This document shows positions 1-58,244 of a DNA stretch of 64,000 nt, piece by piece. The notes below the pieces were generated by a model. It did not search any database. It was given only the letters and a program-made list of their open reading frames with translations, and was not told where the DNA came from. A program made the translations under genes and the position numbers. Source of the stretch: Ascidiella aspersa. Taxonomy: Eukaryota. Each line of letters opens with the position of its first letter. Positions within the stretch are counted from its first letter, which is position 1. The stretch spans positions 29,078,001 to 29,142,000 of the forward strand of contig OZ004612.1 of NCBI GenBank assembly GCA_963924565.1, read 5' to 3'.

Positions 1-120
1 ATGGGTTGTAGCTCCCACCGAAAAGTAACACAATACCAGGATTAATTACACAAACAAGACATGGATTAATAGTTTGCGGTAAAACAACCCTGCCCTTTAT
101 TTTTCGAGTCTACATCGTAC

Positions 121-22800: not shown

Positions 22801-25800
22801 AGCTCCCCTAATCCAACAAATTCGCTCATATTAATTGGAAGTTGGCAAAAACTATCGTCGCAATATTCGCTTGTAGTATTGTATTCCAATATCTTTCCAG
22901 TTATGGCTCTTATGCCAACCTACAGTGAAAAAAAACGTTTTAATCCCGCATTATTTAAGTTAAAAAAACGTGCAATTCTCGTTGTAGTTTTAATAAGTTT
23001 AAATTTAAGAATAGCTGGGCCAAACGCCTTTATCAGTGAATATGCTTCTATCTTCGAAGTGCTTCCTTAACTAAACTCCTTAAATCTAAAATATTTTGTT
23101 TTGTTAAATTTTGGTAACCTTAAAAAATGCCTGGGCATTTCAAATTATCTATTTATAAAGTTTTGGCCACGATAATGACGTAATTTGGTATCAGATCGGA
23201 TCGCCGTTATTTCTGTTAAAAATATATAAATTAATTAAAGAATTCTCTTACGTCAAAGTTAAACTGCTCTCCCGGTAGCGGATTCATAAAGTTCATTTGG
23301 CAACTTTCGCCCGATTTGATGACGTGAGAGTTGATGATCTCATCAGGTATTCCCGGTCCCATTTGAACCTGTTGTAGTGACGTAACGTTGGTGATGTCAT
23401 CACAACCCAAACTCGCAGTCACCTGAAAAGTAAGTTTGTGTCTGCTTTGTTCTTCATATTCAGAAATGTAACGTATATGGCTACAGGAAAAGATACACTC
23501 CTTTAAAAAGGGTTGCCATCATTTATCGATAAAGTTTATACTAATTTAGAAGGTATTTACCCTAATCTCTAAAATTTATCTAATTCATTGGTAATACCAA
23601 TCTATTTTTATAATTTCAAGTAATTGTTCTTTTTGAAATGTTATAGTTGTTTTAGATGTGCCCTGTTTTTTGTTTTTTTCAAAATGTATCCAAATTTTTC
23701 AATTTGACAAAACGTAGGTTTTAAAAAAGGACATGCTCAGTAGGCTAGTGATGAATGTTTCCTGGGCACAAGGACTTAATACTTCAAGTTGCACTTTTGT
23801 TGTGAGTTTCACCGTTACACTGTACTCGAGACGAGGTGTGAGCCCGCTTAGTATCGTCGAATTCTTGTCAGTTACAGTCAGGGTTGTTGGACTGACAGCA
23901 TCGTTCGTAGCTACAATGTGAACCTAAAAATAATAAAAAAAGTTAAAATCTGAGGATTCCCATACTGCGTTGTGGGGCATGAGGTAAGTCTGTAGAGTTA
24001 AGCAGTCTTGCCTTAGGACAGGGGCGTTTGCTTAAAGACAGGGGTCCAAAACTACGGCCATGGGGCCAGACCAACCCGCTTGATTAGTTAATCAAGCCCG
24101 CGGCATATTTCCTAAATAAAGGCGAAGTACAGTTGAAATGTTGCCGGATCCAATTAGAAAAATTTTAAACTTAGCGACAGCTATCTAAGACTTACTGCAG
24201 TTATTGTTGCATATAGTTATTTATATTTCCTTTATACTTTATAATATAAGTTTGCTGACCCCTTCTGCGGGATACATAAATAACGTGATTGGATTCCAAT
24301 ATATAACCTCTTAACATAAAAAACAAAGGAATTATAAGCAAAGCAAGTTGTTTAAACATGCTATTATCGTACACTATAAAAGATCTACCGTTAGTGTCTT
24401 GCTGAATTTATTGGCAAGTGGCATCATATTCCATCTAATATCCAGTGAAGTCGAATTGCATTCGAACTTCGTAACGTTGAAAAAGACTGCAGGAAAAAAA
24501 TGAAAGTTAGCCATTGTCCGATCGCAGTTCTAATAAAACGGTTGACCATTAATAGGTTCACGGTGCACTAAGTTTTACGGAAAGCTTATCCAAATCAAAC
24601 CGCCGTAAAATTTAAATAGCATCTATTAATAGTGCCCATCAATTTCGCAGATTTCTTACATTTGGAAATCAGTTGGAACTGCCAACTGGAAAGTTGTATT
24701 ATATTAATGTTGACAAGCTTTGGCACAGCCGTGCTTGATCAGTTTAAAATAATATAAAGCACGGTCGTGCGAAAGCTTCATTTCAACGCAATTATATTTA
24801 CAGTAAATTTGTCGTTCAACAGTGCCACCTGATTTCTAAAATTAGAACTAGACACAAACAGCTATCAACAAAACTTACCTATCGCTTATCAAGAGTAGAG
24901 ATGCTGTTAAAATTTTATATAGTGCCACATAATTTCCAAAATTTGAGAATATCATCAAAAACTTACATTTTGTTTGGCAAGAGTAGAACGACTTGGTTTG
25001 GTTGCAGTTTGTGGTCAACTCCTCGTTAACCAAGTGGCTCCATACTTTCTGCTGACAAGTAGAGAAACCCCGGTCTGTGAATTCAGGGGCTACAACCCCG
25101 TCATTCCAGTACCACTGGTTCTCCATGGGGTTAAACCGAGCTCCGATGAGAACGTCGGTTACTGAAAAGAATAATAGGAATAAGGAGGATTTTCAGGTGG
25201 TGTAAATAGGCTACGTTATTTTATGTTTCATGACTGATGCATATTTTCAGTCCCAGGACTGCCGCCTAATTGTGGTTAGACCAGTAACGATAAAGTAGTT
25301 GCGAAATGACTCTAATACAGCCTTTCTTAACCTAGGGTAAATTTTCTTTTTTTAGGAGGTAAATGAGCTATCAATCAAAGTATCCACATCAGTTGACTGG
25401 TCAGAAAAATTGTGCCAGCTATGGGTGTTGGTAGCCTACTTTCCTAGTTTATATCAACTGCTAATTCGAAGCTAGCCAATAGCTTATTTATTCTTTGTCA
25501 TCTAGCGTCGGTAATGGTATGCATCGCTACTGGTTACTTCTTTTAGTTTATTGGCAACATCCTTATCTCTCAGTTGCTTCATTTGTCGTTGCCAAAAAGT
25601 ATGGGCAGCTGTTGAATATAACTGCTGTAATTTGTTAAATTAGTTTTTTAATTATTGAGCACCATTTTATATGTTGGGGGTAAATCTAATATTCATCTTT
25701 GTTGAAAAGGTAAAACATAAAAAAAGGAACCCGGCTCGAATAGAATAATCAGTATTCTATCGCAGAACACGCCGACGCCCAGGCGTTTTTTTAAATCTTA

Positions 25801-28800
25801 GCTAATCATGTGCATGTGTAGATTGGTTTCAAGGATGACCTTCTTAAATGAATAACCCAATTAAAAACTGGTTCACAACGATATGATTTTTTTATTCCCG
25901 CTTCTGTAATCTGGTGACCTTGTTTATATCACATGAAACTATATTTTTGCTTTTTATGATACAAATGTGCGACTGTTTAACATACAAAGTAAATAAGCAC
26001 ATAAGGGGGTAAACAAAGCATATTATTTTCAAACAAAACTATAACTGGAGTAGTAAAACAAAATGTTACAACGTAAATCAAAATACCTGGGGCTTGAATA
26101 ACACTTATCAACTTCGGTCAGATATTATCGGACCTCCCTAGGCCATAGCTAATTATTTTGAGACAAACTTAATATAGGACTAGTAAAACAAAATGAATAT
26201 TTTGTTGCAGCTAATTAGTCATTGTATCAATGGTAAAACTGTTTTTCCGGCAATTTTTATATAACCTATGCAGGAAAAACGAAATAATTAATATAGGACC
26301 AGTAAAGCAACATGTTACAACGTAAATCAAAATACCTGGGGCACGAAATTGTCCCCTTTTCAAGATGGAAGTTCTGTAAGGCTCGTCGACCGCAGTTAGG
26401 CGATCGGTGATCGGAGGTGATGGCGAGTAGTATTTGTATATTTCTTTAAATCGTGGGTCGGTTGGTGAGTAGGTGGTGTAGAACTTGAAAACTAGATGCC
26501 AACCTGCAGTAGATATTATGTATTGGTCAAAATCAGTATTCTATGTTACACCTGCCCTAAAACTTTACCGGGAGAGAGAGAGATAGCTGATCTGCAGAGA
26601 TTGTACTTTGACCTAATGAAACACATTTATGCTAAAGCTTGAGAATCAATACAATTTGTTTTTATGTAATGGCACCTAATTATCCTATTTAGAATTAGAC
26701 AAATACTGCCATTTGCAAAGATTGGTCAATATAAGTTGATGTACCTTGATTATGTTTATAGGATTTGTATTGGGCAATTACCCGATACAAAATGGTAGTA
26801 TCAGTACCAAATGAAACATATTGGAACGAAAATTGGATTCTCAAAAAACAAATTTGGATAATTCTTAGTTTATTATCTGTTTGTAATAACTTTGTTTGCC
26901 TTAAGATTTTCCGTTGAAGACAGTAGCCTATGTCACGATTATGGATATCCGATATTTGACGTTTTATTCCGATACTTTGGGTATCGAGATTCGATCAAAT
27001 ACCAAATGACCTCATCGTTATGCTAAAACAAGAAAAATAGATAAAAAATCAACGGTATTTTTCCAGGTGATTAGGTCAAAATTTCGGTTATCTTTAAGAA
27101 GTTTATTTATACTTCCAGATGCAACTACGATTTGTGATTAAACGCAGCGATTTCTATTTTGAAACTTAACTTATTCAAAAATACGACGTAAGCGACTAGA
27201 GATAACTAAACTTGAAAGCTGAAAAAAAAAACTTTTAAAGGTTTTAATTTCATCTATTTTGTTTGTTTATTTGGTATCAGCTTTTTGTCCAAAACATCGG
27301 TATCGGAGTAGTGTGTCAAGTATCGGATAACCGTGATATGCTGTTTTTGACTAAAAGGCAAATTTTAGGGCAAAATAAGTTATTACAAACAGATAGTAAA
27401 CTAATAATTATCCGATTTTAATTATTTGACAATTCGATTTACGTCCCAAGATGTTTTAGTTATATATTGAATATATCAAATTATGAATTATATTTTAGAT
27501 ATGCTTTCCTAGACGTTTGCTGTTAACTCGTTTAATTTTAACTAAAAGTCGTATTTCGTTTACATAAAAATGATAGCCCAAACTATTTCGTCTTAAAAAA
27601 CTTTTAGTATAAATAATTATAGTCGAAGAGGTGCTAGCGTAAAAGAGCGATCAGGGTAAATAGCCACTTCCATTAAATATACGTAACGTGCAATTTGAAA
27701 AGCCTGTCTACACAATCTGTACCTGGGCTACATGTAACTCCACTGTCTTCAACCAACCACGTTTCAAATGTAACGTTATATCTGCAAAAGCTGATTGGAT
27801 TGTTCGATGTATTGGAAGAGCTGTGTGAAAAACATACATGTAAGTAGCAATGTCCGATAAAAAGGTATCGGGGACGGATTTAGAGACGTGGGCACATGAC
27901 CACACTTTGTTGAGGTATGACGTAACATTGTGATGTCACTTTATGACGTCATGTATTACGTAACTCTGTAACATCACGTAATTACATAACTTCGTGATTT
28001 CTATGCATCACGTTTCGACGACATTATGACGTAACTTTTTGTGACGTCGCGTATTACGCAACTTTACAACGTCGCGTAATGACCTAACCTAGTATTTTTC
28101 CTAAACAAAGGTTCGCGCCTGAATGATAATATTCGATAATATCGGGTCGTTGCCGGGACCAAGTGACAAGTATCGATACTCGTCCCACACCAGGGTTGTA
28201 TCGGTGCCGATGCGATACCAAATTAACATAGAGATTATTGCCTTTAAATTTACCTATGAACGTTTCAAGTTAAATGTTTTGATTCTTTGTGCATTGATTT
28301 TTTTAATTACGTCATGTGGTATCGGATTGTTACGGTACTACGTTCTGGAAAAAACATGGTGTATCGGTATTGGAATCACTGAAATAAGTTTTGAATAACC
28401 AAAGCTTTGACCTTTCAGATCGTAACTTGTGTATTAAGTAACGCTCATCAAAATTAGCTAGCCCTCCCAAGGAGTTTATGCAAGAATCGGAATACTTAAA
28501 CATGCCGGCGAACAGTATGATTTAAATTACGTTGTTTGTCACAACTTCTTAATTTTAGATGGTTCTTATGCTGATTTATCAATTCGGTTTATATTATGTT
28601 GTTACTCATTGTGTTATAGTCTGGTTAGGCTTACATTAATAAATTAGCTGGGCATTTTAGGTGTTAACTATTTATGCTTATTACTCGCCTGTTGTAAAGA
28701 TCGATATACCACGTCTGGCCGAGAACTTGAGTGCTGAACCATTTGGATTCATTGTTTTCTGGTGATAGTGTGTATTGATAGAGATCTGTGCCATTCGGGT

Positions 28801-30170
28801 GTTCTGAGTCGTAGTATATCCAAATTCTCTGCAAATCTAAGACCAACAAGATTGGTAAAAACGTCATTTTTTTCTAGAACATATATAAAAGGGCGTATCT
28901 TCATAGAATCCAAAACCATTGGCAGAAGGTTTCTGCTTTTCGATCACTGTTTCGCTGACGCGTATATTAACAATAAAACTCAAAGTTGAATACCCCGAGT
29001 TAACCAGGTTCACACATTTCAAAATATGTATATATAAATTTCGCCTATACTGGCATCGTCACTTCCTTACTTCGAATGAATGAATTCCCTTTGAGTTTTA
29101 TTGTTTATTGTCATACAGTTTCACTGTTGATACGCTAGATTCTCTGCGAATCTATAAAGGAACGAAATAGGTACGAAATGTCAGTTTTTAGTAAAACAGT
29201 TTCACTGTTGATAATCTAGCAAACCTGCAAATTTGAGAGCAACAAAATAGGTACCAAATGTCAGTTTTTATTAATACAGTTTCTCTGTAGATACTCTAAA
29301 AAATATAATTTTTTAGCCATACACCTTTTCTGTTGACACTAACCTCCAGAATACTTTGATTTGGCTCCGTCGGTAACGATTTGCTTGACATCTGCTTCTC
29401 TGGTGACAGACAAATATCCACCTAGCTCTTCGCATCTTTCCTCTGCCGTATACGCATCGCTCAACTCATCCGATAAAGTGATCACGCTGTGTCCGTCCGA
29501 TAAGAGATCGGGTTGGCAAACTGTTGAATTAGATTTTCTTACTTTTTTTAAACTGTTTTTGGTGCTACATAGCCTACTATCGGTGCAATGACTTAAGTAC
29601 ACGTTTTTTTCATTTACTTGAATGAAGTCTTAAAGTATAAAATGGCTAGACGTGGACTTAAATCATTTGTCTTGGACCTAAGTTATTACAAAGTACAACA
29701 GCGCTACGCACATTATAAAAGCGAAAGATTTATACAAACGTGATCAACAACTGTGATCTAGCCCTTATTGGAAACGACCTAGATTAAAATCAGATGTTTT
29801 AAATGAATACTATTTTGATAAAGTTGGGTTATTTACTTCATTTTTTGACTCTACTTGTTATTTTTTGCGAATTACTGGACTTGGTCGTAAGTCGTAATAA
29901 GAATAACTAGTTTTCAACAATTTTCTAGCCTTGCATCATAATTAATCGACAGTATCGATTAGTCTGCCATTAATTGTATTCGGTGTCTTAATGATACACA
30001 AGCCTTTATCGTTGGTCACAAAACAGCTTCAGGAGGGATATATCTCAGTTAATAAACTCATATATGTATGTATCTTTCATTTACAACAACGCTACGTACT
30101 TACCTAATCCCATTAAGGGCTGGAAACTATACAACAGAAATAACCAGAAAACAGCACATTTTTTATTCAT
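10890..30170 (-). CDS. Receptor 2: type I membrane protein, 2x[split CTLD + ABC insert + 2 FN3-like] + TM + short tyrosine-motif tail (~977 aa)
   Basis: 24 phase-consistent exons: 30104-30170 (signal peptide MNKKCAVFWLFLLYSFQPLMGL), 29344-29520, 28689-28836, 27723-27820, 26336-26503, 24967-25161, 24389-24486, 23813-23923, 23252-23422, 22791-22919, 20981-21059, 19863-20039, 18949-19084, 18190-18281, 17694-17852, 16972-17100, 16377-16486, 15457-15567, 14749-14919, 12945-13073, 12331-12391, 11732-11834 (TM AVVVGSICGGLAAIGLLVGVCYCCG), 11121-11149, 10890-10975 (TAG stop). Total 2934 nt, open frame; two introns need GC donors. Confidence 0.85.
19696..19819. repeat. Short hairpin element
   Basis: actaaaaagaa...ctccaacgtttcggctacc / ggtagccgaacgttggag...ttctttttagt. 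Confidence 0.65.
20790..20900 (+). mobile_element. tRNA-like repeat copy
   Basis: gctcagttggtagagcgaccgtcctggtatgaccgaggtcgtgagttc. Confidence 0.75.
21472..21636. mobile_element. Palindromic foldback/MITE family (aagaatatcaaagcccatacagaagtagg arms)
   Basis: Near-perfect inverted arms aagaatatcaaagcccatacagaagtaggtatcatttt / aaaatgatacctacttctgtatgggctttgatattctt. Other copies at ~15095-15300, 18420-18605, 30746-30915, 31895-32072, 33300-33372, 40859-41030, 51765-51930, 59825-60020. Confidence 0.85.
25318..25734. mobile_element. Degenerate hAT-like MITE
   Basis: Begins cagcctttcttaacc; flanked by ctctaata / ctcgaata (7/8); right TIR decayed. Confidence 0.45.
26820..27450. repeat. Long imperfect inverted repeat (~150-bp arms), foldback-like
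   Basis: ggataattcttagtttattatctgtttgtaataac...tccgatatttgac (~26856-26960) versus gtcaagtatcgga...gttattacaaacagatagtaaactaataattatcc (~27315-27413). Confidence 0.7.
29116..29300. repeat. ~80-bp tandem repeat (~2.3 copies)
   Basis: acagtttcactgttgata...aaataggtac-aaatgtcagttttta repeated. Confidence 0.7.
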
Positions 30171-32589: not shown

Positions 32590-35500
32590 TTAATTAACAG
32601 ATACGCAGTAAGCGTTCTCCTCGTTTGTAATCGCGATCGGAACACTCGTCACTTCCGGTTCCGCTTCCGGTTCTACTTCCGGTTCCGGTTCGTCTTCCTG
32701 AAAGTTTTGATTGACATATTGGTGGAGTAGAACGGGCGGATCCATAGCTGCCACGTAGCATTCGATGTAGCGTTCCTGAAAAGGTAAGCATTTTTTCTTG
32801 TGATATCTTTAAAATGAAGTCCGAATACTTTGACTACGAAAAAAAATCCAACAAATAAATTTTTCTTTTGATAACAGAAATAAATATTACTATATGAACT
32901 GTTGCTACCAGGCATAATATTAATCATAAATAGCTCTTTAACTTTTATATCTGATAGATTTTAGCTGTGAGTAATGAAATTCGTTATACGAAAACCATCG
33001 AATTTGCTTTTTTCAAACAAATTCTACAATCACCCAAAACGCATAAAGGTGTCATCTCTTTAGTATATTTTTTACCGGAGAGTCCACCATGTTTGGTCTC
33101 ATATCTCGTAGATCTTTAACAATGCGGAAAACGTCCACCGTGTCATTGGACTTTAAACATTCCAGAATGTTCACCAGGGCAATGAAAGTTCCAGTTTTTC
33201 CACAGCCGTTCCTGAATACAGCAAAGTGTAGTGTTTTTTTAAATCATGGCATTAATTATTGATTTGATATAGCTAACAAACTATAAGATAGGCGTAGTAG
33301 GGAATATTAAAGCCCGTAAACAAGTAGGTAGCATTTTAAACGTTTCGAATAACTCTTTAATTTTTTTCAACATAGTGAGAAGCCACTGATTCTAAGTATA
33401 TATATACTGCCGAGGCAAAATATCATATAATATGATGTGTGTAAGTTAATTTGTCTACAATTAAAAGCATAGACGCCCAGTTTTCATAGTGGGCTTTTTA
33501 GCCTGAAAGCGAGTCTTTTTAACATTAAATAGAAACACGATGTTTACATAAACCAGCAGTTTAAAGATTTTGTTTTCTGAAGCATACTCACTTGCAGCAA
33601 ACTACAACGTATTTTCCACCATTGCGTGCGTTGATTTCCTGCATTTGTGCGATCAGTTTAATGAAATCGTAAGCCATGGGAGGTTTGTCTTTCCAATCGT
33701 TTGCTTGAATAACGCAAACATCACAAGATTCCTAATCAAGTAAGATTTTAACATACTTTTAACATGTTATTTGTATTAAAAGGATGCAGCAGGCAACCGT
33801 GCTATAGTTGTTTGTCGACTTGCTTTCCTCGGAGCCTGTGTAGCTCAGTTGGTAGAGCAACGGTCCCGGTATGATCGAGGTCGAGAGTTCGAACCTCACC
33901 ACAGGCAAGTTTTACGAACAAGATGCAGCAGGCAAAGGAGCTATGGTTGTTCTCGAATTCGCCCCCCCCCCCCCCCCTCTGAGCCTGTGTAGCTCGATCT
34001 TCGCGGTAGAGCGATGGTCCCAGTATGGCCGATCGTGAGTTTCAAAGTTCTCCACAGGCGAGTTGTTTTTCTAGCTTACCTTGCTTTCGACTGTTTTGGT
34101 AAATTTGTCGAAGGCTTTCGTTGTAGAAGTACATTGAACATTTATACATGCAAACTGTACAGAATGCGTAATCTTATCATTCAGGAGTCGCCCGTTTGAT
34201 TAACGATAATGTTGTACCAATATGTCTATGATTGTTTTAGTGACTTGATAGGGTACAATAAAACCCATTCAATCTGAAGTGGTTTGTACAAATAGGTGTT
34301 ACAGTTGGCTTTTGATGAGTGATTCACCTTTAAACTGGTTACCTCAGTCCGGCGATCGATGTTCATTATATGACTAAGGTAGTGCGTTCGAACCTCGCCA
34401 CAGGCTAACTTCGATTGCACGCAATCACTTATGACATAGCACATATTAAGAGTATATTACCTGGTTAGTTGTAGAGATAGAAACGTCGTGGATTCTGGCA
34501 AATGGAAGTTTCGCTGTGTTGGCTACTGCTAAACTTATGCCGCCGTACTGTTTCATTTTTGCCTTGAATAGCTTCTTCTGTAAATTAAAGAGCTGTCTTC
34601 GAGATTTGGTAAAGTTGTCTGCTTGATATTACCAGTGATTTTTAATTGTTAAACTGGAAGGCGATTCAAATTTGCAAACAAAAAAAACGTACAATAAGTA
34701 AAATTCACATTTTAAAGACAGTAACGAGACACATATACTGTATGGAATATGTCAATTGATTTACCGTAGTAAATAAATAAGAATGATAGCATTATTTTTC
34801 ATCAAAAATTCGACTCAAAACTTTGCGGTCACTGCACTCCAGTTTGACAAACACTGATATAGACACACTAACTTACGGTTTCATCAAGACACACAAGAAC
34901 GCTGACGTTTTTGGCCAGTAACATTTTCCAAAATTCTTCCTCTTTTCCCGCTACTGGACACTGGGTGGCGATAAAGTGTCCGCCAAACCGGTTCTGTAAA
35001 GCATACGGCTTTAAATTTACCAAAATGCAAACTTAATACAATAGGTAACCTTTTTTATATGGCTGACCCCTTTTGCTTTTTAACATGATAGCGTGTCCCA
35101 TTCCTTTTAAACCAAATAATTCTTTTATCTAACCCTACAATAATTAATTACTCTCCGAATACTACTCCAGCAAGCTAAACTTTGTGAACACAAGCTGAGA
35201 TGCTTTATTATCATTAACATTTAAGTAATATGTAATGACAATAATGCCCTTTAGCTAATATAATGTAAATCAAATCACTTAAAAGATGTTACGTGGGCCC
35301 TTAAAACTTCTAAATAAAATCCAGGTTGAGGAACATTACTTTAGAGAAACCTGTCCCTTAAATAATTACCTCAATGTATGAAGCATTCGTTTTTATCTCC
35401 ATTTGTTCTGTTTCAGACCATATCTTGACTGCGTTGCTGTTATCTATATATTGAAGTATTTATTGTTTATAATTTAACTGAAACATCAAGTAAATAGCCA

Positions 35501-38500
35501 GCAAAACCTACAGCAAGTTAGAGACGAATTCCCAGGCACCCATTCCGCTCCATAATTCCATTCGTCCAAAATTTTGAATTCTTCTTTCGCGATATGGACT
35601 CTATATAAAATGATTCTCACGTAATAATGTATGGCAAAAAGGGGTGCCTTTTCAAAGGCCTACAGCAACTAGTTATAAGTGCAAGGTTTGAACTAGTCTT
35701 TGGCGAGGTTCGAACTCACGACCACAGCATAACATTTTTTTATTGTATTATTATTATTATTGCTAGTCAGGATATGTTTAAGGTTTTATATCACAGATGT
35801 ATACAAGAACATTACGATTTGTAAGGTAACTAGTTTAGTTCAACACTTAACTGCCGTACATTTGTTCTCTCGTCATTTGCTGCAACTTGTCGGCGTTGTA
35901 ATCTGTGTCGGGTAGGGACAGGTGTTCCAACAGCAATCTTCGAATAAATGAATATTGCTCCTGAAAGAAAACAACATTATACAGCATGACTAAAGTAGTT
36001 TATTAAAGTCGTTGTTATTTTTCTTAAAGCAGGATGTGGTATGATACACAGATTTTCGTAGAAATTTCTATAAAAACTATAAAATCTAACATAGGGATGT
36101 CCCCAACTTTACATTATATATACTAATACATTTAAAAAACAAAAAAAATTGCTTTAGAATAAGAACTTTACATCAGTTGTTACGTGCTTTGATAAATTTA
36201 CTTTTAAAGGTTGCGATGCACCGGTATATTTTTCTTTGCGAACGTTTCGTCAATAATTCTTGCCATCGCAGTGTGAAATAATTTAAAATGAAAACGCAAT
36301 AATCGACAAAACACACGGTAATCGGCAGAGTAAGCTCATTTTACACACCGACGATGACATGAGATGTTGCCGATACGTTTGTAAACACAAATATATGTCG
36401 ATTTTATCGAAACGTCTTGTATTTCATAGATGTTATAGTTTTTATAAACACTGTGTGTATCTTACCCAGTCTTGGACCAACTGAGATTTATGTTGTTTCA
36501 ACTTTACAACCGTATTATTTAAATCCACATTTCCTTTGGTATCTGCCTCATCGAAAGCAGTGTCCATTGCAATGTAAACACCAGTCAGTTCTTTAGAGGC
36601 ACTGAAATTATAAAATAAATTATTTTTGCACGCTAAGAAATTTTATTTTCTGTTGGGGATCCAACTTGAAAAACATTATTTCAAATTTCTAACTTTAAAA
36701 TTGCTTAGCGTTTTCTTTTAGCCTACTTGTCAGACAAACTTTCCTTTAGATTAGAAAGCCGGTAGTATTTTTTCAGAAAAGAGCACTTTCATTAAGATAA
36801 ACGAATATTGATGCTTTGTATGGTAAATATTGTACCTTCGCACCTTTGAAACGGCTCACATTTGTTCATTTCACTCTAATAAGTCACAGTTACCTGCAAT
36901 GAACGGTAATTGGATTCCTTCTGTCGTGACTTTCTTCGACCATTTTTCGCAAGTGAATCAAGCTAGTTGTAGTAACAGGTGTTCCGTGGTCAGGCCAGCC
37001 AATGAAGTGGAACTGAGTGACAGGGCGTTGTTCCTGGTACTAAATATACACACACAAAAAAAGCTTGTCATTTCCCTAACACTGCTTCGTGTCCCAGTGG
37101 CCGAAGGCTTAGTTTAAGAACTCTCTTCTGGTGTAAACGAACTTATAAAGCGACGTTTTGGCAGCAGACACTAGCTAACCACAGGTATATAACTTCGTTT
37201 ACACCAGAAGAGCGATTTCTATCTATTGATACTTTATTCAGGTTTAAGTTTTAATTTTACACAAATTTGAATAACAAGTAATTACTTCGATTGTCCCAAG
37301 TTCAAGCTTCCTTTGGATTATGTTTCCAAACCGCTTTTCCTCTAATGAATTTATCCTGAACCTTCCGTGTGTTGAAGTTGACAATAATTGCGGCCAATAT
37401 CGTACTGGTTTGGTCTGATATAAGATTCAGATTTAAACGTGAATGGCAAATTAAAACGGTTTATTTCAAGGACGGTTACCTTGGCTTGTTTTTCGCTTAT
37501 CATCACAATGGTTGAGCAGTTCTGTTGCCAAATCAATTTCCAGAATTCGTGAATCGTTGTCGATTTGGGATCCCGCGTGGATATGAATTTAGACTCGTTG
37601 TTGTAACCCTATTTTCAATTTAGTATGAATTTAAGCAAACGTTGTTTGTGCAATAAAAAAGAAAGAAAGATTAGAATACTTTGTGTAAAATAACACAAAG
37701 ATTTTGTTAACCTAGCTTACCGGTATGTAAGGAACGTTGTAGTAGTCCCTTCCCGCTCTTGTTCTTGCTTTAAAATTTTTACAAAATTTAATTGACGCTA
37801 CATCATTCATTTTCCAATAGTGTTATTGGTAGTCATTTGTACTTACTTGAATATAAGTTTTTCGATTTGTACCTCGAAGCATTGCGTTTGTTCAACGTTG
37901 CAGTCAGAATGCTATTAATTCCTAGACTTGAACGCAACCCCTATAAAAATGTATTTTACTTAGGAAAAACAAAACAAGAGTCTTGATAATTTACCACTCA
38001 GTGGCGCACAGTCAATGTAGTGCACAAAAAATATAATGTATTTCTCTGATGTTTTGGTTTGGCCGATCGGTAAAACACACTACTCTATTTTTAAAAGCGT
38101 GGCAGTGTTTTCAAAGAGTAATTTAAACCTTGCAATTGGATATTGACTTCCATATTCTAGTTCGATCCTCGTAATTGTTCTTAAACGGAAAAAAGGGACT
38201 TTTTAATATTCTACATAGCCACCGCCGGAAACCAACTTACATTGAACTGGTCTTGGCAGTCTTTAAAGTTGTTTTGTGAGCTCAGCAGATAGTTGTTGTA
38301 TAAGTCAGATTTTAATCTGAGTCTTTTAGCCTTGGGATCATTTTCGTCGAAACTAGTATCTGTAACATCAACTAAAAGAATTGTTAAATAAAAAGTCGCA
38401 TTATAGTTGGTAACTCTTTGCAAACACTTTCTTACCATCTGGAAAGCTCCACTTGCGCTCGGAGTCCACCTCTCCACCTCTGTACGTTTAAAATGAAAAA

Positions 38501-41500
38501 AGGTTATAAAAAAGCTACATAGCTTAGTCAGTTTATGGTTAATGTAGCTCGAAATTACTGAATAAGGTTGTTTTATAACGTTGGAACATAATTGACCTTA
38601 GCGAACATGCTGTTTGGGATAAAAATTGGCGCTATGGCAGTATAAATGAATTTTACGAAATCGGAATTAATCCTGCACGATTTTGAAAGTGCTCAATCAG
38701 CACTCGTGTCTAATATTATTATCTATGGTTCAGTCACAATACCTTACCTTTTACAATAGCAGCAGCAAGCAACGCACAAAGCAATAATAAGCAAGATCGT
38801 TATGATGAGCAGAATTAGTGTGATACTGGCCATTCCTAAATAGAAGAAAAGTTTGATATATTTGCTATGGTTTATTTTAGCTGCACACGAAAAGTTACTT
38901 TTTGCTGATTTGCAAAATCCATCCACTGCCACCCATTCATTTGGACCTTCGCATGTTGTAGCTCTAATCTGTGTTAAAATTATTATGTGTTGTGTTTTTG
39001 TAAACGTGTTACAATTATAGCAAGTTTACCTGCGCAGTTATGCGAGTTTTATTTCCGTGTCCTTGAAGAGAAATGTTCATTCGATGTTCCGCGTTAGGTT
39101 CTGTTCTTGTCAAATCGTATTCTTGGAACGTTGTGTTTGATGAACTGATGACTTTAACCTGAAATGTCATCCCTGTTGTTGAGATTTTCGTTGGTTTAAC
39201 TTTTAACGGTTTTCTAAAGACCGGGAAAATTATTTTTACGAGAAATTGATATCGATTTAAAAAACAATGTTTAATCCTTTTTGTTTATTTTGCAATGTGC
39301 TCGTATCTATTGGTTCCTAAAGCATTTACATTTTAGTGACTTGTCGCTTAAATCATAGGCGTAGCCAAGGGGGGCTGAGGGGCCATGGCCCCCCCAAAAT
39401 TTATAAATATTTTACTCTTAATAATTTGTTTTTTTAGCATTTTTGAGCAGTACCACAACATTTGATCACAGGCATGCCACACTTTCAATTCTCATGTACT
39501 GTTACGTCACAAACGATGTAGTTAATATAACATTTACTATACATTAATGTAGTTTTACTACTTTCAGACAGTTTTTGCTCTTGGACTATTTTTTTAGTAT
39601 TGCGTTAACACTAATTCAGTTGCTGCTCGAAACGGTTTGCTAGCATTGTGATGTGTGTTCGTTGCGGCAGTTAATACAATGGTAAAAGCTAAACGAAAAA
39701 TTCCAACTTTTTGGCCCCCCAAAATTTTCGGCTGGCTACGCCACTGGCTTAAATGCACCCTACGTTGAAACAAAGTGTGCCTGAAAGTACAGAAAGGTTT
39801 GAGGAATACAAATAAAAGTTGATTTGTTTAAATAACGTTGTTTGACCCTGGCATTGTTTCATGTTTTAACTTTTTTTAATAATTACCTCTGCCACATTTT
39901 AAAGCTTAACAATGCACAATTGTTGCAATTAATTTCCCAAAAAACACACAAAATTTCTCCGTTGTCGGTATCACCAAGAAAAAGTACTTTCATTTAACTT
40001 ACTGTGTAGCTGAGAATATTTCCGCTCTCATCTGACGGCATAACGACTGTGCAAACCTTTACGGTTGATTCTATCCTGGCTTTTGTAACGGGTTCGGCCA
40101 AACCGTAGCTTGTGTTAGCTGATAAGGTTGAATGCACAGACCCGCTGAAGCAACGACCAAATAATGCAGCCACCTTTAAACAATACACACTGTAAACACG
40201 AGTTTATTTGATATGGAATTTGCTACTTTAGATTAGGTTTGCAACCGTAATATCCTTGCATCAATATAGTGCTGTATATCCTCGAAAAAACGTTTATCGG
40301 GTGGGCAATAAAGAATTAATCTGCCTTGTATTTCGAGGCTACCATTTTCAAATGGTTACACTTTTGTTGGTAATTGGCTTGATAGATAGCATTAGTAAAT
40401 AAATCTTGTGGACTCTATAGATAAATGGGGCCTAATTGTTGCATGGTTTGCTATTTATTAACTCGCAATTGTTATGTATGGAATTACTTCTGCTTGGCAT
40501 TATATATTATTAGAAAACGTGCTTTAATTCGCAGTAGATAGAAACATGGAGATTAAGAGTCTTACCTTAAAGGTGTATTTTGTACGTTTTGTTAGATTCC
40601 CAATGGTCGTAGTGAGATCTTTATAGTCAACACGTTTGTCGGTGATGTTTTTACCGCTTATTACCACCTGCTTAATACATTGCGTTGATAATATAAAATG
40701 ATAATTCATGCTCAGCTAAAACATCGCGAAAAATCAAAACAAATTATATGTTAAACACAATATCCAGTACCTCTTAACTAGGCCGCAGCGAATTTTAAAA
40801 TATAGAAATTTTCGGTGAATTACCGTGATATTTACCGCATTTTAAAAACATTCGTTGATGTAGTAAGAATATCAAAAATAAAGCAGAAGAAAGAAGCATT
40901 TTGAAATTTTTCAATATTTCTTTATTCATTTCAAAAAAATAATATTTAAAACGTTCACAAAATGCTACCTACTTCTGTATGGGCTTTGATATTCATTCCA
41001 CGTTTAACTACAACCTCCAGCCATTATCCTTTAAAAACATGCTGATGTTATTAAAATAATAAGTATAAAAGTGGACGTTACCGTTATATTCGAGCAGTTA
41101 TATTTGTCTTGTAACTTCAGCAAGTTGTCTTTCCAACTGACTTTAAGTTGTGTGGAATTGCAAGTAACCGGCTCCAATTTTGGTTCAACTGCATATCAGA
41201 TGAAACATTAACGTGCAATAGTTCGTTGTAAAAGCTTTGTTTTAATTCATTGACAACGAAACGCCTTCATGCTCCTTACGTATTGCCTTGAATTGTATTA
41301 AAAACGATTGAAAAGTTATGAATATATTGTTTTGTAAAAAGTGTGCGACTAGTTTTTAAGTTTATTAGAGTGTGAGAAGCAAAAAAAGAAGTTTTAGATC
41401 ACTGCCCTATATTCTAATTAAGCTGACCTTTACAGGCAATTGAATATTTCTTTAATTTAAAGATGTTCATAAAACCGTGAGTAAAAATGTAGTAATTTGG

Positions 41501-44500
41501 AACATTTCTTTAAATTTTTCGTCATTACTAATGTTTGAATACTATTGCCAATGTTTGTTAAATTGATCAGAAATTTGTATCATTGTCATACTTACACTTT
41601 ACTAGGCAAGAGTAGTAAGTGTCACTATCTTTACAAGCCTTGTTAAGAATTTGATTACTATCAAAGTCCCAAACTTTCTGCTGGCAAGTTGTGTGACCAA
41701 CATCTGTGAACTCTGTAGCATTTTCACCATCGCTCCATTTCCATTGTTGGTTTGACTCATTGAATCGAGCCCCGATGAAAACTTTAGAGTGTAAATCTAC
41801 ATAATAATGAAGTCTATCAAAAACGTGAGGCTAAGGTCAGTTTCATGACACACATGGAGCACATGGCCATAAAGTCCCCAAAATATTTTTTGCTTGTTTT
41901 AACTACAAAAATTAGAAAATTTAACTCTGCGCAGGATCTGATTTATCTTTCTAGCATGTTTTTATTATACCACTTTAATACAATCGTTTTAGCTCAAAGG
42001 CATCTTACGTCGTTTTACACGCCCCCAAAGAAAAGTGTGATAACTTAAAATGCATAAAGCGCGAATCGAAAACATCTTCTCATAAAGCTGTTGAATTAAA
42101 AGCAACACCTCTCCAACCTAAAACTTTAACGATATAAACCAGCTGTGTAGGGATCTTATGGTTATTTCTTTATGTTGTCACGTTTCGATAAAACTTTATG
42201 ACATCATATTTGTATGTAACTTTATGACATCATATTTGTATGTAACTTTATGACATCATATTTGTATGTAACTTTATGACGCGTCGTTGTTGTGACTTTG
42301 TAATGTCCAGGTGTGAAGTACCTTTATGACCTTATCCCTGAAAAAAAATTACTGCCAAACAACAAATTCTAAATGCGCTCCTAGAATTTGGCTATGAGAT
42401 GTTAAAGTAATATGCTAATGATTTGTTTGGTATTTTTAACTTTTTTATATTGTATATATTGCACCAGATATGTTGCTATCGCACAAAGCGTAGAATCTCC
42501 CCTTTTCGTTCATGAAGTCTAGATAGCTGTCGTCTTTTACATCTGTAAGTCTCATTGACCATGGCTCCCCAGAATTGTCGTATGAGTAGATCTCCTTGGA
42601 ACCCGGCTCATGCGTACTTTGCCCGTATAAAAGGAACATTTCATTCCAATCTTAAAGCGAATAAAGAATATTTTTTAAGCGAAGGGTAAAATTTCTTGCT
42701 GTATCGATTGTTTGGAGTTTTTAGAAGCTGGTGATGTTTTATAGTAGTGAAATACATCTGATCAAGTTGACTATACGGGCGTTAATGTTTCAAAATTGGT
42801 CAGATCCTTATAGTATTCAATTAAACAAAAAGTTGCAACTAAAAATAAGAGTTAAATGTTTCTCTAACTTACAGTCTCATTATAACAAAGCCTTATAAAA
42901 CGATATTATTGTGTTGTGTAGAGTAACTTAGCTTCAATATGTTCATCATGGGTATATTCAATTTTGGTCAATATACCCTCAAGGGTTCAGACTTAGCTCT
43001 AAGAAGTCAGAACAATTCTTTAATTTGTATATACTCGGGTTTAGCCTTATCTGATTGGGCATAGCAATTTTCTTTATAGTGATTTGTTTACCTCGATGGC
43101 AGGTTCTATCCACCGAAACCAACCACTTTTCCACTTCGCTTTTTGACTCACAAAACCGTATGGGGATTGTTGACGGCGAATTGTCGCTTCTGTGACGAAA
43201 CAGTAACAGTCATTTAAATTCCCCCGTATATGATAAGGTCAACGCGGAGAGGTTTTCAAAATGTGCTTCGCGACGCCATTGTGCGTCGTTTCAATTTTCA
43301 AGTGCCACACACATTAATTATAATGTATCGTATCTTAACTCCATTGTGGTAACAAAATGTTCACAGAATTTATTACCTACTGACGTGAACAATATTGGTA
43401 CTCTAGATCCCCTTTAATATAAAGTTGCTTGTACTAGCATAATGTAACAAGCACTTACATATAGTTGTTTCTCGACTTGTTCCTGTCTGAGCCTGCATAG
43501 CTCAGTCGGTAGAGCGACGGTTCCGGTTAGGCCGGAGGTCGTGAGTTCAAACCCCATCCTAGCCTATATTTAATTTTCTAGCCTGCATTATTAAACGATA
43601 TATTTGGTAAGCCTGTGATAGCTTTCTGTGTACTACTAACATATGCATACGAGTTTATTGTTACTATAAATACTACAGTCCAACTTGCTGTAATTACTAG
43701 AGTTCAACAAAATTTAAAGGGAAGTAGGTTAATACAAAGTACTCACGAGTTGTAAAGATCAATGTACCACAAATGTCCGAGATGTTGGGGACTAACCCAA
43801 GGTGAAGACTCGTTTGAAAATAACGAATATTTGTAAATACTCGTTTTGCTCTTGTTGTAATAGATCCAAACTCGTGTAATATCTTAAGTGACAAAAGGTA
43901 TTTATGAGTTCTAAGCAACAATATATCTTAGCATCTTCTGATCGGCGTTAACGTTATTGGACTTTGACATATTGTTAAATCTTAAATAAGTTTTTTCAAT
44001 TTATATCGTTAAAATATAGCAGAAACCCTAACCAAACGTTACATTATTTAGGGTACGAAACGTCAGTACATGTAAAAGGTAAAAGTGCGTAAGAATGCTG
44101 CCTTTTATTCAGTATATTCATCATACAGTGTTTCAAGCGTTGCTACCTGGTACGTAGAAGGTTTCCCGCAGTTCGACGAAACCTTGGTAAAAATCGTCTT
44201 TCACATTGGTGAGTCTCATCAAAGTTGAATTATCTTCGTGACTGTAGGAGTAGATTGCTTGGTAGCCCGGCAACTGTTTGCTGCTTCCGTATAACTTAAA
44301 TTCTTCCGTCCAATCTACGATAAAAAGCCACACAATTTTGAATAACTGGCTGTATTATTGTTATTACCGTAGCTCGATCGATAGAGCGACGGTTGCGGTA
44401 TGCCCCGAGGTCTAGAGAAGTGGTTCTCAACCGCGGCTCCGAGAGTATTTTAGCGGCTCCCATTAGGGTGAAAGCAATAAAATGAGGTTAAAAAAATAAA

Positions 44501-47175
44501 TATAGGGTTCAAAAAATTATCAGAAGCATATTTGCACACGAGTTTGCTCGACAACAGCAGGTATTTTTAGATTAATTGTCTGATTTCGTAAATTTATGAC
44601 GTCATACCTGAAAATTGTTATGCCCCCTAAACAAAAACACTGGATCCACCCCTGCGCATAACATACCGCGATGCAAAAGCAACTTTCTAAGGAATCTTTT
44701 TTTTTAGAAAGAAAATAGGACGTTTCAGAGTAAATTGAAAGAGAAACATTTGCCGTTTCTTCGATGTCTTTTGTTGTTATTATTTTTAATAAAATGCTTA
44801 AAGTTTTGGCGGCTCTGTTTTAAAATCGAGTATTCAAATTTGGCTCCGATGCTGACAAAGGTTGAGAATCACTGGTCTAGAATGTGAAGTCTGAATCGAG
44901 CCAAAAAAGTGAACTCGAGTCTGAGTCAAATAAAAAAATTAACCCGATTTTATCTCTGACCAAGTTCGCCTATTACGTCGAGTCCGACTCCGACTCAAAA
45001 CTATAAAAGGTTAATGTCCACCAATCCACTCATAGGAGTGTCATATAATTCAGTTCTTCGCAATAAGTGGTTGGCAATTATTTTGCAATATGCTATTCAA
45101 TTCCTGCAATTTACTTTTTTCTGCCTTCGCAATTTGCTACTGCGCAGGCGCACGTCTGACTCGGGACTCCGATAGTCTTACGGAGTCTCACTCGACTCCA
45201 AAATCCAACTGCGCAGTCTTGGTCCCAACTGCTTCTTATTAACTGGACAAATATATATATATATATTTCCAACATCTTTCACTGGTCTACTTACGGGATT
45301 GACAGGGTTCGGTAATCACCACCCAACTTCTTGTAGTTTTGTCGGAGCAGAAATACAATGATATTGGCGAGTCTGGTACCAACGAACTGCACACAAAAAT
45401 ATAGCTGTTTTAGGGCCTGCTACATCCAAAATGTTTTGTTGCACCGGTGCAGGGGTCCCTGAACTACGGCCTTACGGTTAAATTTTTCGGGCCCGCGACA
45501 TATTTTCCTAATGGTTCTGAAATACAGGCATCAAAACTTTGTTAGTCAAACAGTTTGTCGGATGTCCAACTACTAGGCTAAGTGTTGACGAAATTCAAAG
45601 CTAAGCAAAGCTTCCAAAACCTTTGTAAAAAATAAATATTGTTCAATAGTGAAAGCGGTAGGAGTTGCTTTATCTTTGAACGCTCAATTACGATAAATAG
45701 TAATAGCCTTTTCTTTATTAATAACGTTTTAACGTTCATTCAAAGCAATAATATTAACTACTAGGCTAAATGTTGACGAAATTTAATGCTAAGCAAAGCT
45801 TCCCAAACCTTTGTGAAAAATAAATATTGTTCTATTATGTTTTTAATTTTGGTTATCCGGACCTTTATGACCGTTGTGCAATCGAATTTTACACTCTTAT
45901 TTGTGAGTTAGGCTTATTTATTGGGTTGTAGTTGATTCACACTTAAACTTGCATAATTATTCTAACCCACGCTCCCTATTCAGTCACGTAGGTTTTTTTG
46001 AAGCAAATCAGTAATAAATATTTTGCCGCCCTTTGTTTTATTTTTTTAGTATATGCCGCAAGCTGAAAAATGCACTGGACGCCCATTATAAACATTAATT
46101 GTTATATTGCAATTTAAAAGTTATACAGAAGTTTCTTTAAATATTTTCATCAGCGTAACCTCTTTAGTCATATGTGTTATATTCATTATAACTTACGTGT
46201 CATTATACAGATTAAAGTACCACATATCACCGAGATCTTCGACACTTTTCCATGTCTTACTATCAGTGGTTGGATGTAGAGAATACTTGTAGATCTTCGT
46301 TGTTTGGTTTTCGTAGAATATCCAAATACGAACCGTTCCTAGAACAGGTTCAAAGATTGCTGGTTAAGCCAATTTATTGTTTACAAGGTGTTTTTTTCTC
46401 GCAAGTTATGTTAAAATATTGATTTAGTTCCTAATCGTCGGGTAATGAAACTCCAATAGGGTATTATGACAACTTGGAAGGAGTAATAGTGAAAGCGGTA
46501 GGAGTTGCTTTATCTTTGAACGCTCAATATCGATAAGTAGTAATAGCCTTTCCGTTATTAATAACGTTTTAACGTTCATTCAAAGCAATATTAGGTTTTT
46601 ATTAAGTTGTTTTTGTAGTTTGTTTTTTCTTATGTAGTATGTTCTTTTCTATGATCACAGGTCACTGTTTTATTGTTTTTTAAAAAGTTGTAGCATTCTT
46701 TTAAAAGAGGTAAAAGAAATAGTTTAGGAATACGGAATATTCAAATGACTCTCTTCAGTCTTTTTAAATTAGAATTTTAGAAAAATTTTAATTTCTTAAA
46801 GTAAATTTGTTTTGCATTTTTTCAACCAAATATTTTAATTTTGAAAACAAACTTGACCTGGTGCATATTTTAGGCTTGCTGCTTTCGTAAAATTTTGATT
46901 GACATCTGCTTCTCTGGTGACAACCAAATATCCACCTAGCTCTTCGCATCTTTTCTCTGCCGTATACGCATCGCTCAACTCATCCGATAAAGTGATCACG
47001 CTGTCGCCAACCGACGATAGATCAGGTGCGCAAACTACTAAAAACATTTTGTAAAACCTGGTCGACAGGAATTCGACAAGTGTAATTGTTTAAACGCATT
47101 TGCATACTTACCCACCCCGGAAGTCAGGTAACATCTACTTATCAGCAAAATACTTGTTAGAAATATCTCATTCAT
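32590..47175 (-). CDS. Receptor 1: receptor-type protein tyrosine phosphatase-like protein (split CTLD + 2 ABC inserts + 2 FN3-like + TM + tandem PTP D1/D2, both catalytically degenerate; ~1248 aa)
   Basis: 31 phase-consistent exons: 47112-47175, 46858-47034, 46197-46338, 45295-45386, 44147-44314, 43747-43882, 43092-43189, 42465-42650, 41596-41796, 41082-41188, 40566-40667, 40003-40173, 39030-39158, 38899-38968, 38748-38835 (TM), 38436-38479, 38241-38371, 37847-37940, 37721-37767, 37480-37608, 37286-37414, 36894-37039, 36466-36601, 35860-35960, 35512-35600, 35370-35443, 34877-34993, 34461-34577, 33592-33731, 33076-33211, 32590-32775 (TAA). PTP motifs: DYYNVPYI, EFWKLIWQQNCSTIVM, RYWP, QFHFIGWPDHGTP, PITVHCS, LVQDWEQYSF; D2 NASYI, FIATQCP, EFWKM, VDVFRIVKDLRDMRPNMV. 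Confidence 0.9.
32700..35600 (-). other. PTP domain D2 region of receptor 1 (P-loop VCCKNGCGKTG, no WPD)
   Basis: EEFKIL, NASYIE, HFIATQCP, EEFWKM, GKTGTFIAL, VDVFRIVKDLRDMRPNMVDSPERYIECY. Confidence 0.85.
33783..34075 (+). mobile_element. Two tandem copies of the tRNA-like repeat (best cloverleaf 33834-33907)
   Basis: GCCTGTG...CACAGGC acceptor stem, tagctcagttggtagagc, cggtc-ccggtat-gatcg arm (GGT in loop), gttcgaacc; second copy ~33982-34060. Confidence 0.8.
35860..38371 (-). other. PTP domain D1 region of receptor 1 (WPD loop intact, P-loop HCSASKELTG)
   Basis: Exons 17-24 translate to the recognisable PTP motif series; a phase-2 intron falls inside HCS|A, the position typical of classical PTP genes. 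Confidence 0.85.
39354..39746. mobile_element. Non-autonomous hAT element (MITE)
   Basis: Ends cataggcgtagcc / ggctacgccactg; perfect 8-bp TSD gcttaaat (39346-39353, 39747-39754); ggccccc-caaaat subterminal motifs. Confidence 0.85.
42192..42280. repeat. 26-bp minisatellite (aactttatgacatcatatttgtatgt, ~3.4 copies)
   Basis: Three exact units plus a partial unit. Confidence 0.9.
43460..43640 (+). mobile_element. tRNA-like repeat copy
   Basis: gagcctgcatagctcagtcggtagagcgacggttccggttaggccggaggtcgtgagttcaaacc with leader and body. Confidence 0.75.
44418..44874. mobile_element. hAT MITE inserted into a tRNA-like repeat copy
   Basis: TIR aagtggttctcaacc / ggttgagaatcactg; TSD gtctagag / gtctagaa; gcggctc subterminal repeats; left flank 44369-44417 is the 5' part of the tRNA-like repeat. 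Confidence 0.8.
44890..45215 (-). repeat. Interspersed repeat, inverted counterpart of ~1695-2080
   Basis: actgcgcaggcgcacgtctgactcgggactc (45139-45169) closely matches the reverse complement of gagtcccgagtccgacgtgtgcatgcgcagt (1769-1799); gagtc-rich ends. Confidence 0.6.
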
Positions 47176-57700: not shown

Positions 57701-58184
57701 TTATTACATGAGTGTTATTATAGATGGTCTGCTCCATGGTCACTTTAAAAATAGAGTTAGCTCCACCAGGGAACATATCAATAGATACAAATCGCTCTTC
57801 TGGTGTAAACGAAGTATAAACCGACGTTTCGGCAGCAGATACCAGCTGACCTCACCAGGGTTAATAATGGGATTAACTGTAGATTTTACACGTTAATTAT
57901 TAACCCTAATGAGGTCAGCTGGTATCTGCTGCCGAAACGTCGGTTTTTAAATCGTTTACACCAGAAAAGCGATTTGTATCCATGGTCACTTTGTACCATT
58001 TGTATGCTATATGTAATTCACCTCCACCGTTCTTGAAGCAGAGATACGGGAATCTCCACACATTTCCCAACCCAACCGACATGCCAACTGTGGCAAATAG
58101 AAAGTCGAAGGATTTGGTCCATTTCTGCCTGTCCACGTGTTCATCCTTCACAGCCACGAAATCTTCGCCTTCAGGTTTGCCCAT
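48770..58184 (-). CDS. SLC6 (NSS) sodium- and chloride-dependent transporter, GABA/betaine/taurine/creatine-like branch (~591 aa, 12 coding exons)
   Basis: Exons 58022-58184, 56820-56951, 56191-56428, 55687-55819, 55144-55278, 54477-54580, 54035-54128, 53264-53407, 52605-52733, 50956-51162, 49745-49933, 48770-48877 (TGA); 1776 nt open. Motifs [73 protein letters not shown]. Confidence 0.95.
49320..49446 (-). mobile_element. tRNA-like repeat copy joined to the terminal motif
   Basis: aatctgtcgatcaatga body, ggttcgaactcgc, then gggctagatcactgttgttgaacaca. Confidence 0.7.
50100..50900. repeat. Degenerate tandem repeat array in SLC6 intron
   Basis: Recurring aacttcgaagagagcataat / ttccggcaaatag / cacctatcgctta units. 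Confidence 0.65.
51470..51758. mobile_element. Non-autonomous hAT element (MITE)
   Basis: TIR cagtggtcggcaa / ttgccgaccacta; perfect TSD ttttagag; its left end is also copied at ~51279-51292. Confidence 0.85.
52855..53060 (+). mobile_element. tRNA-like repeat copy preceded by the terminal motif
   Basis: ggactagaccacagttgttgaaca, then ctctgagcctgcg...ggtcgtgagttcgaacc and body catcattgatcgacagattc. Confidence 0.7.
57784..57980. mobile_element. Hairpin MITE with ~70-bp inverted arms (shorter copy at 37121-37217)
   Basis: Arm gatacaaatcgctcttctggtgtaaacga...cagctgacctca pairs with arm tgaggtcagctg...tcgtttacaccagaaaagcgatttgtatc. Confidence 0.85.
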
Positions 58185-58244
58185 GGTTAATTAAGGCCCT
58201 AAGATTCCTAATGCAAAGGATAAGTAAAAGTCACAAAATAATGT

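Follow-up and report, generated by a model that had tools for sequence, protein, structure and literature searches.

A predicted catalytically dead receptor-type tyrosine phosphatase beside active tandem paralogs in the ascidian Ascidiella aspersa

The window analysed here, a stretch of 64,000 nucleotides of Ascidiella aspersa contig OZ004612.1 (positions 29,078,001 to 29,142,000), contains a receptor-type protein tyrosine phosphatase (PTP) gene, hereafter gene A, which runs on the minus strand from 47175 to 32590 and encodes 1237 amino acids in 31 exons, with the terminal stop as its only one. Its layout is that of the tandem receptor-type PTPs: a signal peptide, an ectodomain, a single transmembrane (TM) helix and two phosphatase domains, D1 and D2, both of which match PF00102. 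Exon boundaries were set by hand and then compared with those of paralogs. In the cytoplasmic part, exon sizes and phases equal those of the paralogs except in exons 18–20, 22, 27, 28 and 31, where the differences are of whole codons. The features, in window coordinates, are as follows.

32590..47175, minus strand: gene A, with a signal peptide, a split C-type lectin-like domain carrying two inserted repeats, an FN3-like stalk (recognised by eye, without a Pfam match), TM, D1, D2 and an acidic tail with one Tyr
46858..47037, minus strand: exon 2, N-terminal half of the lectin-like domain; 89–92% nucleotide identity to active and dead paralogs, silent difference 0.14–0.21
43747..43882, minus strand: exon 6, an inserted-repeat exon; best paralog copy 83–90% identical in nucleotides, silent difference 0.10–0.31, 130 genome matches
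41596..41796, minus strand: exon 9, C-terminal half of the lectin-like domain; weak Lectin_C match (E 0.049, below the Pfam cut-off)
38748..38835, minus strand: exon 15, TM helix, about residues 603–624
37847..37940, minus strand: exon 18, degenerate phosphotyrosine-recognition loop, Tyr to Ser
37721..37767, minus strand: exon 19, 47 nt (65–71 nt in paralogs); DxxRV motif gone, DYINAS changed to DYYNVP
37480..37608, minus strand: exon 20, IAxQGP replaced by ISTRDP; shorter by two codons, a feature shared with gene F
37286..37414, minus strand: exon 21, Cys of KCxxYWP changed to Pro (backdoor position by spacing)
36894..37039, minus strand: exon 22, intact WPD loop and the P-loop His-Cys; 80–87% amino acid identity to active paralogs
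36466..36601, minus strand: exon 23, rest of the P-loop, ASKELTG (Arg to Leu, Gly to Glu), and Q-loop
33076..35600, minus strand: exons 25–30, D2 domain, with the loop CCKNGCGKTG
32590..32775, minus strand: last exon, acidic and Pro-rich tail with a single Tyr close to the C-terminus
11400..29700 (ends approximate), minus strand: adjacent paralog that has two lectin-like units and, at about 11800, a TM exon, and lacks detectable PTP exons
1..8500, minus strand: ectodomain of a second neighbouring paralog, cut by the left edge of the window; no TM identified, and no PTP exons ahead of the next gene

A model with four PTP-less genes in the window was rejected in favour of two multi-unit genes. 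The gene directly upstream of gene A, on the minus strand at about 49700–58200, is SLC6-like (sodium:neurotransmitter symporter), judging by eye from its translated motifs. Contig depth in the DNA runs marks very high-copy intronic repeats, a tRNA-like SINE and others, at 33100–34200, 37040–37250, 39200–39750, 40950–41030 and 43440–43570.

All 30 introns of gene A have GT-AG ends and no exon contains an internal stop, which bears out the open frame over 31 exons claimed in a sequence-only reading of this DNA. The P-loop is split by an intron at the 36894|36601 junction, where exon 37039–36894 ends CATTGC AG|gt and exon 36601–36466 begins ag|T GCC, giving VHCSASKELTG. The splice junction thus upholds the P-loop HCSASKELTG of that reading, with Cys kept, Arg replaced by Leu and two Gly gone. 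The junction has canonical splice sites in the DNA but was unseen in RNA, in about 6% of the reads of run X4. An alternative exon supplying AGVGRTG was rejected, since all six frames of the window lack a canonical P-loop exon. Assembly error was rejected as well: a contig from DNA run X1 spans 35847–36960 and differs by five substitutions and one gap, all intronic. A longer exon 19, suggested by an upstream NDVASIKF that resembles DHARVKL, was rejected because no AG acceptor is present there.

The motif losses of D1 extend well beyond the P-loop. Where active classical PTPs have the CX5R Arg and the KNRY Tyr, gene A has Leu and, in the alignment, Ser; the KNRY loop described earlier as degenerate aligns as RYKSKNLYS. 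ISTRDP in place of IATQGP and the WPDHG motif read as stated before, while the Q-loop, which had been called intact, keeps both Gln but has two preceding Arg changed to Lys and one Met to Leu. Three lesions had been missed: the loss of DxxRV, the change of DYINAS to DYYNVP and the loss of the KCxxYWP Cys. In the alignment with paralogs, D1 retains the catalytic Cys, the WPD Asp and both Q-loop Gln. Of the D1 columns, 69 do not vary across 18 Arg-bearing paralogs, and gene A departs from them at 25 and gene F at 16; when each of the 18 paralogs was left out in turn, just 0–5 invariant columns were changed, and the losses of gene A are therefore not ascribed to chance. In D2, Lys occupies the Arg position of the P-loop in gene A and in all 12 paralogs aligned.

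Mutation of the P-loop Arg leaves PTP1B and YopH with almost no activity and makes them poor substrate traps. The P-loop Arg binds and positions the substrate phosphate and stabilises the intermediate, according to an excerpt of PMC4322731. Gene A is predicted to be catalytically dead in both D1 and D2, and the case for a pseudophosphatase is stronger than first put forward, with most classical motifs altered and the D2 Arg also missing. From established PTP chemistry we infer no catalysis and, because the Arg and the recognition Tyr are both gone, poor trapping of phosphotyrosine.

Matches to the WPD exon numbered 81 in the genome, some of them distant ones from other PTP families; 57 lie on the contig of the window and 15 in a 0.53-Mb cluster around it. 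The P-loop Arg is kept in 75 of the 81, ELTG is found in two (genes A and F), one match is D2-like, and in three the P-loop exon is absent from the DNA fetched. The sequence-only reading had asked whether paralogs elsewhere keep an active D1; nearly all matches keep the Arg. The cluster consists of two dead copies beside 13 close Arg-bearing siblings, and every one of the 16 D1 domains found in Phallusia, Clavelina, Styela and Ciona, the other ascidians compared, likewise has the Arg.

Gene F lies about 40 kb to the left of the window on the minus strand (L013:5211-9800; G000:C6 about 29035200-29048200). Its P-loop reads VQCSGNNELTG, its KNRY and QGP motifs are lost too, its WPD loop reads WPDQG, and its tail carries the motifs YVEM and EPIY. 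An in-frame 3-nt indel allele of its exon 21 is present in runs X1 and X3. The interval separating A from F holds three paralogs in which ectodomain exons but no PTP exons could be detected; a clear TM exon is present in two of them.

A P-loop with Glu-Leu was found only in genes A and F. In the D1 tree the two genes form a clade (support 100/99) nested among active copies, and the clade recurs with support 100 in a further D1 tree; both are long branches. Thirteen residues are common to A and F and occur in none of 18 other paralogs, compared with 0–1 when A is paired with each of five active copies. In D1 they share only 50% amino acid identity, with a silent difference of 0.68 (near saturation). 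The Leu of Glu-Leu is encoded by CTG in A and TTA in F, two silent changes, and the three preceding residues vary freely. Given the A+F clade, the 13 unique shared residues and the shared exon 20 shorter by two codons, the Arg was lost once in this lineage, from an active ancestor, before A and F split. In the D2 tree A and F are not grouped, and the genes are thus mosaic. Proteins of Phallusia branch as the sister group of the local cluster (91/88), and the named relatives of gene A are all ascidian (Phallusia, Clavelina, Styela and Ciona).

To evaluate selection on the dead copies, we used our own codon model on nine of the cluster's 15 genes, with D2 exons 28 and 31 omitted. On the two dead branches omega was 0.198, against a background of 0.16. 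Neutrality (omega=1) was rejected for both dead branches (p=4e-16), for A alone (p=5e-7) and when exon 22 was left out (p=7e-14). By maximum likelihood on these nine genes, the dead-branch omega did not differ from the background (p=0.39); four-fold sites instead point to an approximately twofold relaxation. At similar four-fold distances, the second-position distance is 0.33 for the dead copies, compared with 0.11–0.14 among active copies, and in this four-fold-site check the dead-copy proteins evolve about 2–2.5 times faster than active ones. Because silent sites are near-saturated and second-position change is 2–2.5 times faster, we place the dead-copy omega at about 0.2–0.35, which suggests relaxed yet persisting constraint. 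The constraint is uneven: exons 18–19 are indistinguishable from neutral (p=0.11, codon model), and the WPD exon and C-terminal half of D1 in gene A have an omega of 0.11–0.20. Even 0.1 neutral substitutions per site should have left gene A with about 20 stops, and none is present; the cytoplasmic frame of gene F is open over 584 amino acids. Since both frames are open and dN/dS is about 0.2–0.35 with neutrality rejected, gene A appears to be intact and conserved and not a fresh pseudogene. The selection for a non-catalytic role that had been suggested from the open frame is supported by a dN/dS well under 1 on the two diverged dead copies; the decoy and scaffold roles named in the same reading are plausible.

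RNA evidence came from one run (X4) carrying the same species label, of which about 6% of reads were used. In this sample the D1 exons of gene A had a depth of about zero, while F and other paralogs were detected. Reads on the ectodomain exons of gene A were rejected as evidence of its expression and, on account of fixed differences, were taken as paralog reads. Gene F is transcribed at low depth: stranded reads of at least 95% identity cover its exons 17, 21 and 22 and its P-loop exon (bin depth 1.6–3.6), and four spliced reads join exons 30 and 31; its P-loop junction is absent from the spliced joints seen in this sample. Gene A may be silent in the RNA sample or everywhere.

The ectodomain of gene A was called lectin-like from the weak Pfam match and from a Ciona homolog, LOC100184609, which aligns to it with E 3e-21. 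In the Atlas the Ciona protein matches Lectin_C, in an alignment that takes in about 120 residues between positions 26 and 280; its single-sequence folding reached a pLDDT of 36. Gene A has one lectin-like unit, and its paralogs have two or three. A repeat of about 135 amino acids is inserted in the C-type lectin-like domain (43092–46338) and has 130 genome matches; it has no Pfam or Atlas match, and its sole named match is a Ciona protein.

Two of the eight ectodomain exons compared are 70–88% identical in amino acids to active copies, and the rest 39–75%. Between A and the set of F and five active paralogs, the silent difference is 0.10–0.31 in exons 2 and 6 and 0.74–1.11 in exons 3, 5 and 8, and the nucleotide similarity of exons 2 and 6 stops at the exon edges. 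An excerpt of PMC6288428 describes shared ectodomains of paired Siglecs as maintained by gene conversion. The exon-limited similarity seen here would fit repeated conversion of that kind, which may be neutral, or an unusual silent-site constraint.

Homogenisation also appears inside the cell. D2 exon 30 of the cluster genes (e.g., L013:5431-5566) is 96–100% identical in amino acids, with a silent difference of 0.07–0.17, in all compared pairs without gene A. This exon, which carries the D2 P-loop, thus appears strongly homogenised across the compared cluster genes other than A; gene A lies outside, with a silent difference of 0.42–0.52. L013 and L019 both miss the intron between D2 exons 26 and 27 and are similar in exon 27, yet are not sisters in D1, a likely sign of gene conversion or exon exchange. 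The sequence-only reading had missed that gene A is one of two dead members of a large tandem family, whose intracellular modules differ between active, dead and PTP-less members.

Taken together, we propose that gene A is a non-enzymatic counter-receptor that shares ligands and partners with the active tandem paralogs and passes on no dephosphorylation; we put the probability of this at about one half. The observed base of the proposal is the open frame, the motif losses, the single loss in A+F, the later purifying selection and the near-identical ectodomain exons. Gene A would be expressed at the cell surface, where its ectodomain would bind the same outside ligands as the active paralogs. 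Inside the cell it would dock partners and leave them phosphorylated, and local phosphotyrosine would rise. The active paralogs would be dampened through heterodimers, or because gene A would compete with them for ligand or for substrate docking that needs no phosphorylation. Such phospho-independent competition has precedents: PTPRU binds substrates of the active PTPRK without catalysis (PMC7320164), and the D2 of PTPRK recruits substrate independently of phosphorylation (PMC9640194). Against the counter-receptor stand the missing RNA reads on the D1 exons of gene A in the 6% sample and the homogenisation of only two of the eight ectodomain exons; with a single lectin-like unit in A as well, ligand sharing is not assured.

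Several other explanations were weighed against the counter-receptor. Gene A could be an independent scaffold or adaptor receptor, whose dead D1–D2 and Tyr-bearing tail would recruit partners of its own for a signal unrelated to the active paralogs. The strong constraint on its WPD exon and C-terminal D1 half would suit this role, as would the Tyr motifs in the tails of A and F and the departure of its D2 exon 30 from homogenisation, which suggests partners of its own. We consider a pure scaffold possible though unlikely: it leaves the near-identity of exons 2 and 6 to active copies unexplained, and Tyr tails occur in active paralogs too, which makes the tail no distinguishing mark of the dead genes. 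Recent silencing or slow decay of gene A as a duplicate, with its conservation a remnant of past function, is improbable. Its D1 exons lack reads in the RNA sample, exon 19 is truncated, the N-terminal D1 motifs are eroded and broken paralogs (L022, L031) exist, but the frame stays open through all 31 exons, the splice sites are canonical, omega=1 is rejected on the A branch, and the loss is older than the split from F, which is transcribed.

The kept Cys, WPD Asp and Q-loop Gln would also be expected of a residual or altered enzyme, or of a STYX-like phosphotyrosine trap. This is very improbable with the phosphate-positioning Arg changed to Leu, an acidic Glu adjacent to it and the recognition Tyr gone, and gene A shows the opposite of the STYX-type pattern, in which Cys is lost and Arg kept (excerpt of PMC9464862). 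Least probable of all is a redox sensor like PTPRU, in which the kept Cys, present at the catalytic position in both A and F, would form a reversible disulphide. This suggestion of the sequence-only reading is weakened by the loss of the backdoor Cys in both genes: the Cys found at a spacing of 87 residues in PTPRU and 86 in the active L026 has given way to Pro in A and to Glu in F, the position having been assigned by motif and spacing. D1 of gene A has one other Cys only, which F does not share. The Arg residues that lower the pKa of the Cys are lost. Moreover, the Cys codon adjoins a splice donor, which may help to hold it.

Known systems offer partial parallels. To our knowledge, PTPRU is the only human receptor PTP described with two dead domains. 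This R2B member (PMC7320164) resembles gene A in its tandem D1–D2, both inactive, its retained catalytic Cys, its degenerate phosphotyrosine-recognition loop, the absence of an otherwise conserved Arg close to the active site and the presence of active paralogs with which it could compete. Unlike gene A, it keeps a canonical HCX5R motif (excerpt of PMC8269279) and has a WPE loop and a backdoor Cys, whereas gene A keeps WPD and lacks the P-loop Arg and backdoor Cys. Gene A also has a lectin-like ectodomain, arose in an ascidian tandem array and is no orthologue of PTPRU. Receptor PTPs dead in both domains thus have a known example, and gene A is an independent case with a different lesion. The best structure matches of the WPD exon are R4/R2A receptor PTPs such as PTP-alpha, PTP-epsilon and LAR (6uzt, E 5.5e-14; 2jjd; 1lar), which share the tandem domains and a C-terminal Tyr but have an active D1 and a different ectodomain. 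These receptors have few copies in vertebrates. Related proteins occur among ascidian proteins annotated as uncharacterised or generic PTPs: Phallusia A0A6F9DQP0 and Clavelina LOC143463404 have the same D2 signature exon as gene A, the latter also shares its ectodomain (E 4e-30 to 2e-34), and Ciona LOC100184609 shares the ectodomain and has no PTP domain. The 16 D1 domains found in other ascidians differ from that of gene A in keeping the Arg. No description of this ascidian family was found in the literature searched, whose coverage left out most subscription papers.

The paired Siglecs (Siglec-5/14, Siglec-11/16; PMC6288428) resemble the array in their tandem genes, homogenised extracellular exons and unlike intracellular modules. 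They contrast ITIM with adaptor-coupled signalling, where the ascidian array contrasts active, dead and absent phosphatases; the array further differs in that homogenisation affects some exons only, and its putative immune role is suggested by architecture only. A broader reading, which we hold to be speculative and rather unlikely, is an ascidian paired-receptor system of receptor phosphatases, a tandem array of lectin-like receptors with conversion-homogenised recognition exons and one of three cytoplasmic states: active phosphatase, conserved dead phosphatase or none. When such a system recognises pathogens or tells self from non-self, its dead members would act as counterparts that either activate or dampen the response.

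A dead copy within an expanded family is not by itself rare. What sets this locus apart is an independent origin through loss of the P-loop Arg, with diverged dead copies beside active siblings, which offers a natural experiment on the PTP-domain surfaces that remain constrained once catalysis is lost. If the decoy reading is true, phosphatase-based paired receptors exist in the closest invertebrate relatives of vertebrates.

Further irregularities were observed in the family. In L035 and L045 the search over about 14 kb downstream gave no P-loop exon. The WPD exon of L022 is broken, and the P-loop exon of L031 is apparently frameshifted. More tandem PTP clusters lie at 30.0–30.2, 31.6–32.6, 7.2–7.3 and 5.0 Mb of G000:C6 and at 8.2–8.5 and 24.2–24.5 Mb of C8. 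L021–L025 (G000:C6 29.24–29.35 Mb) form a five-gene subclade in which the Arg is kept, KNRS or KNRC replaces KNRY, and HCG replaces HCS in four of the five genes, a possible second, partial loss or a change of specificity.
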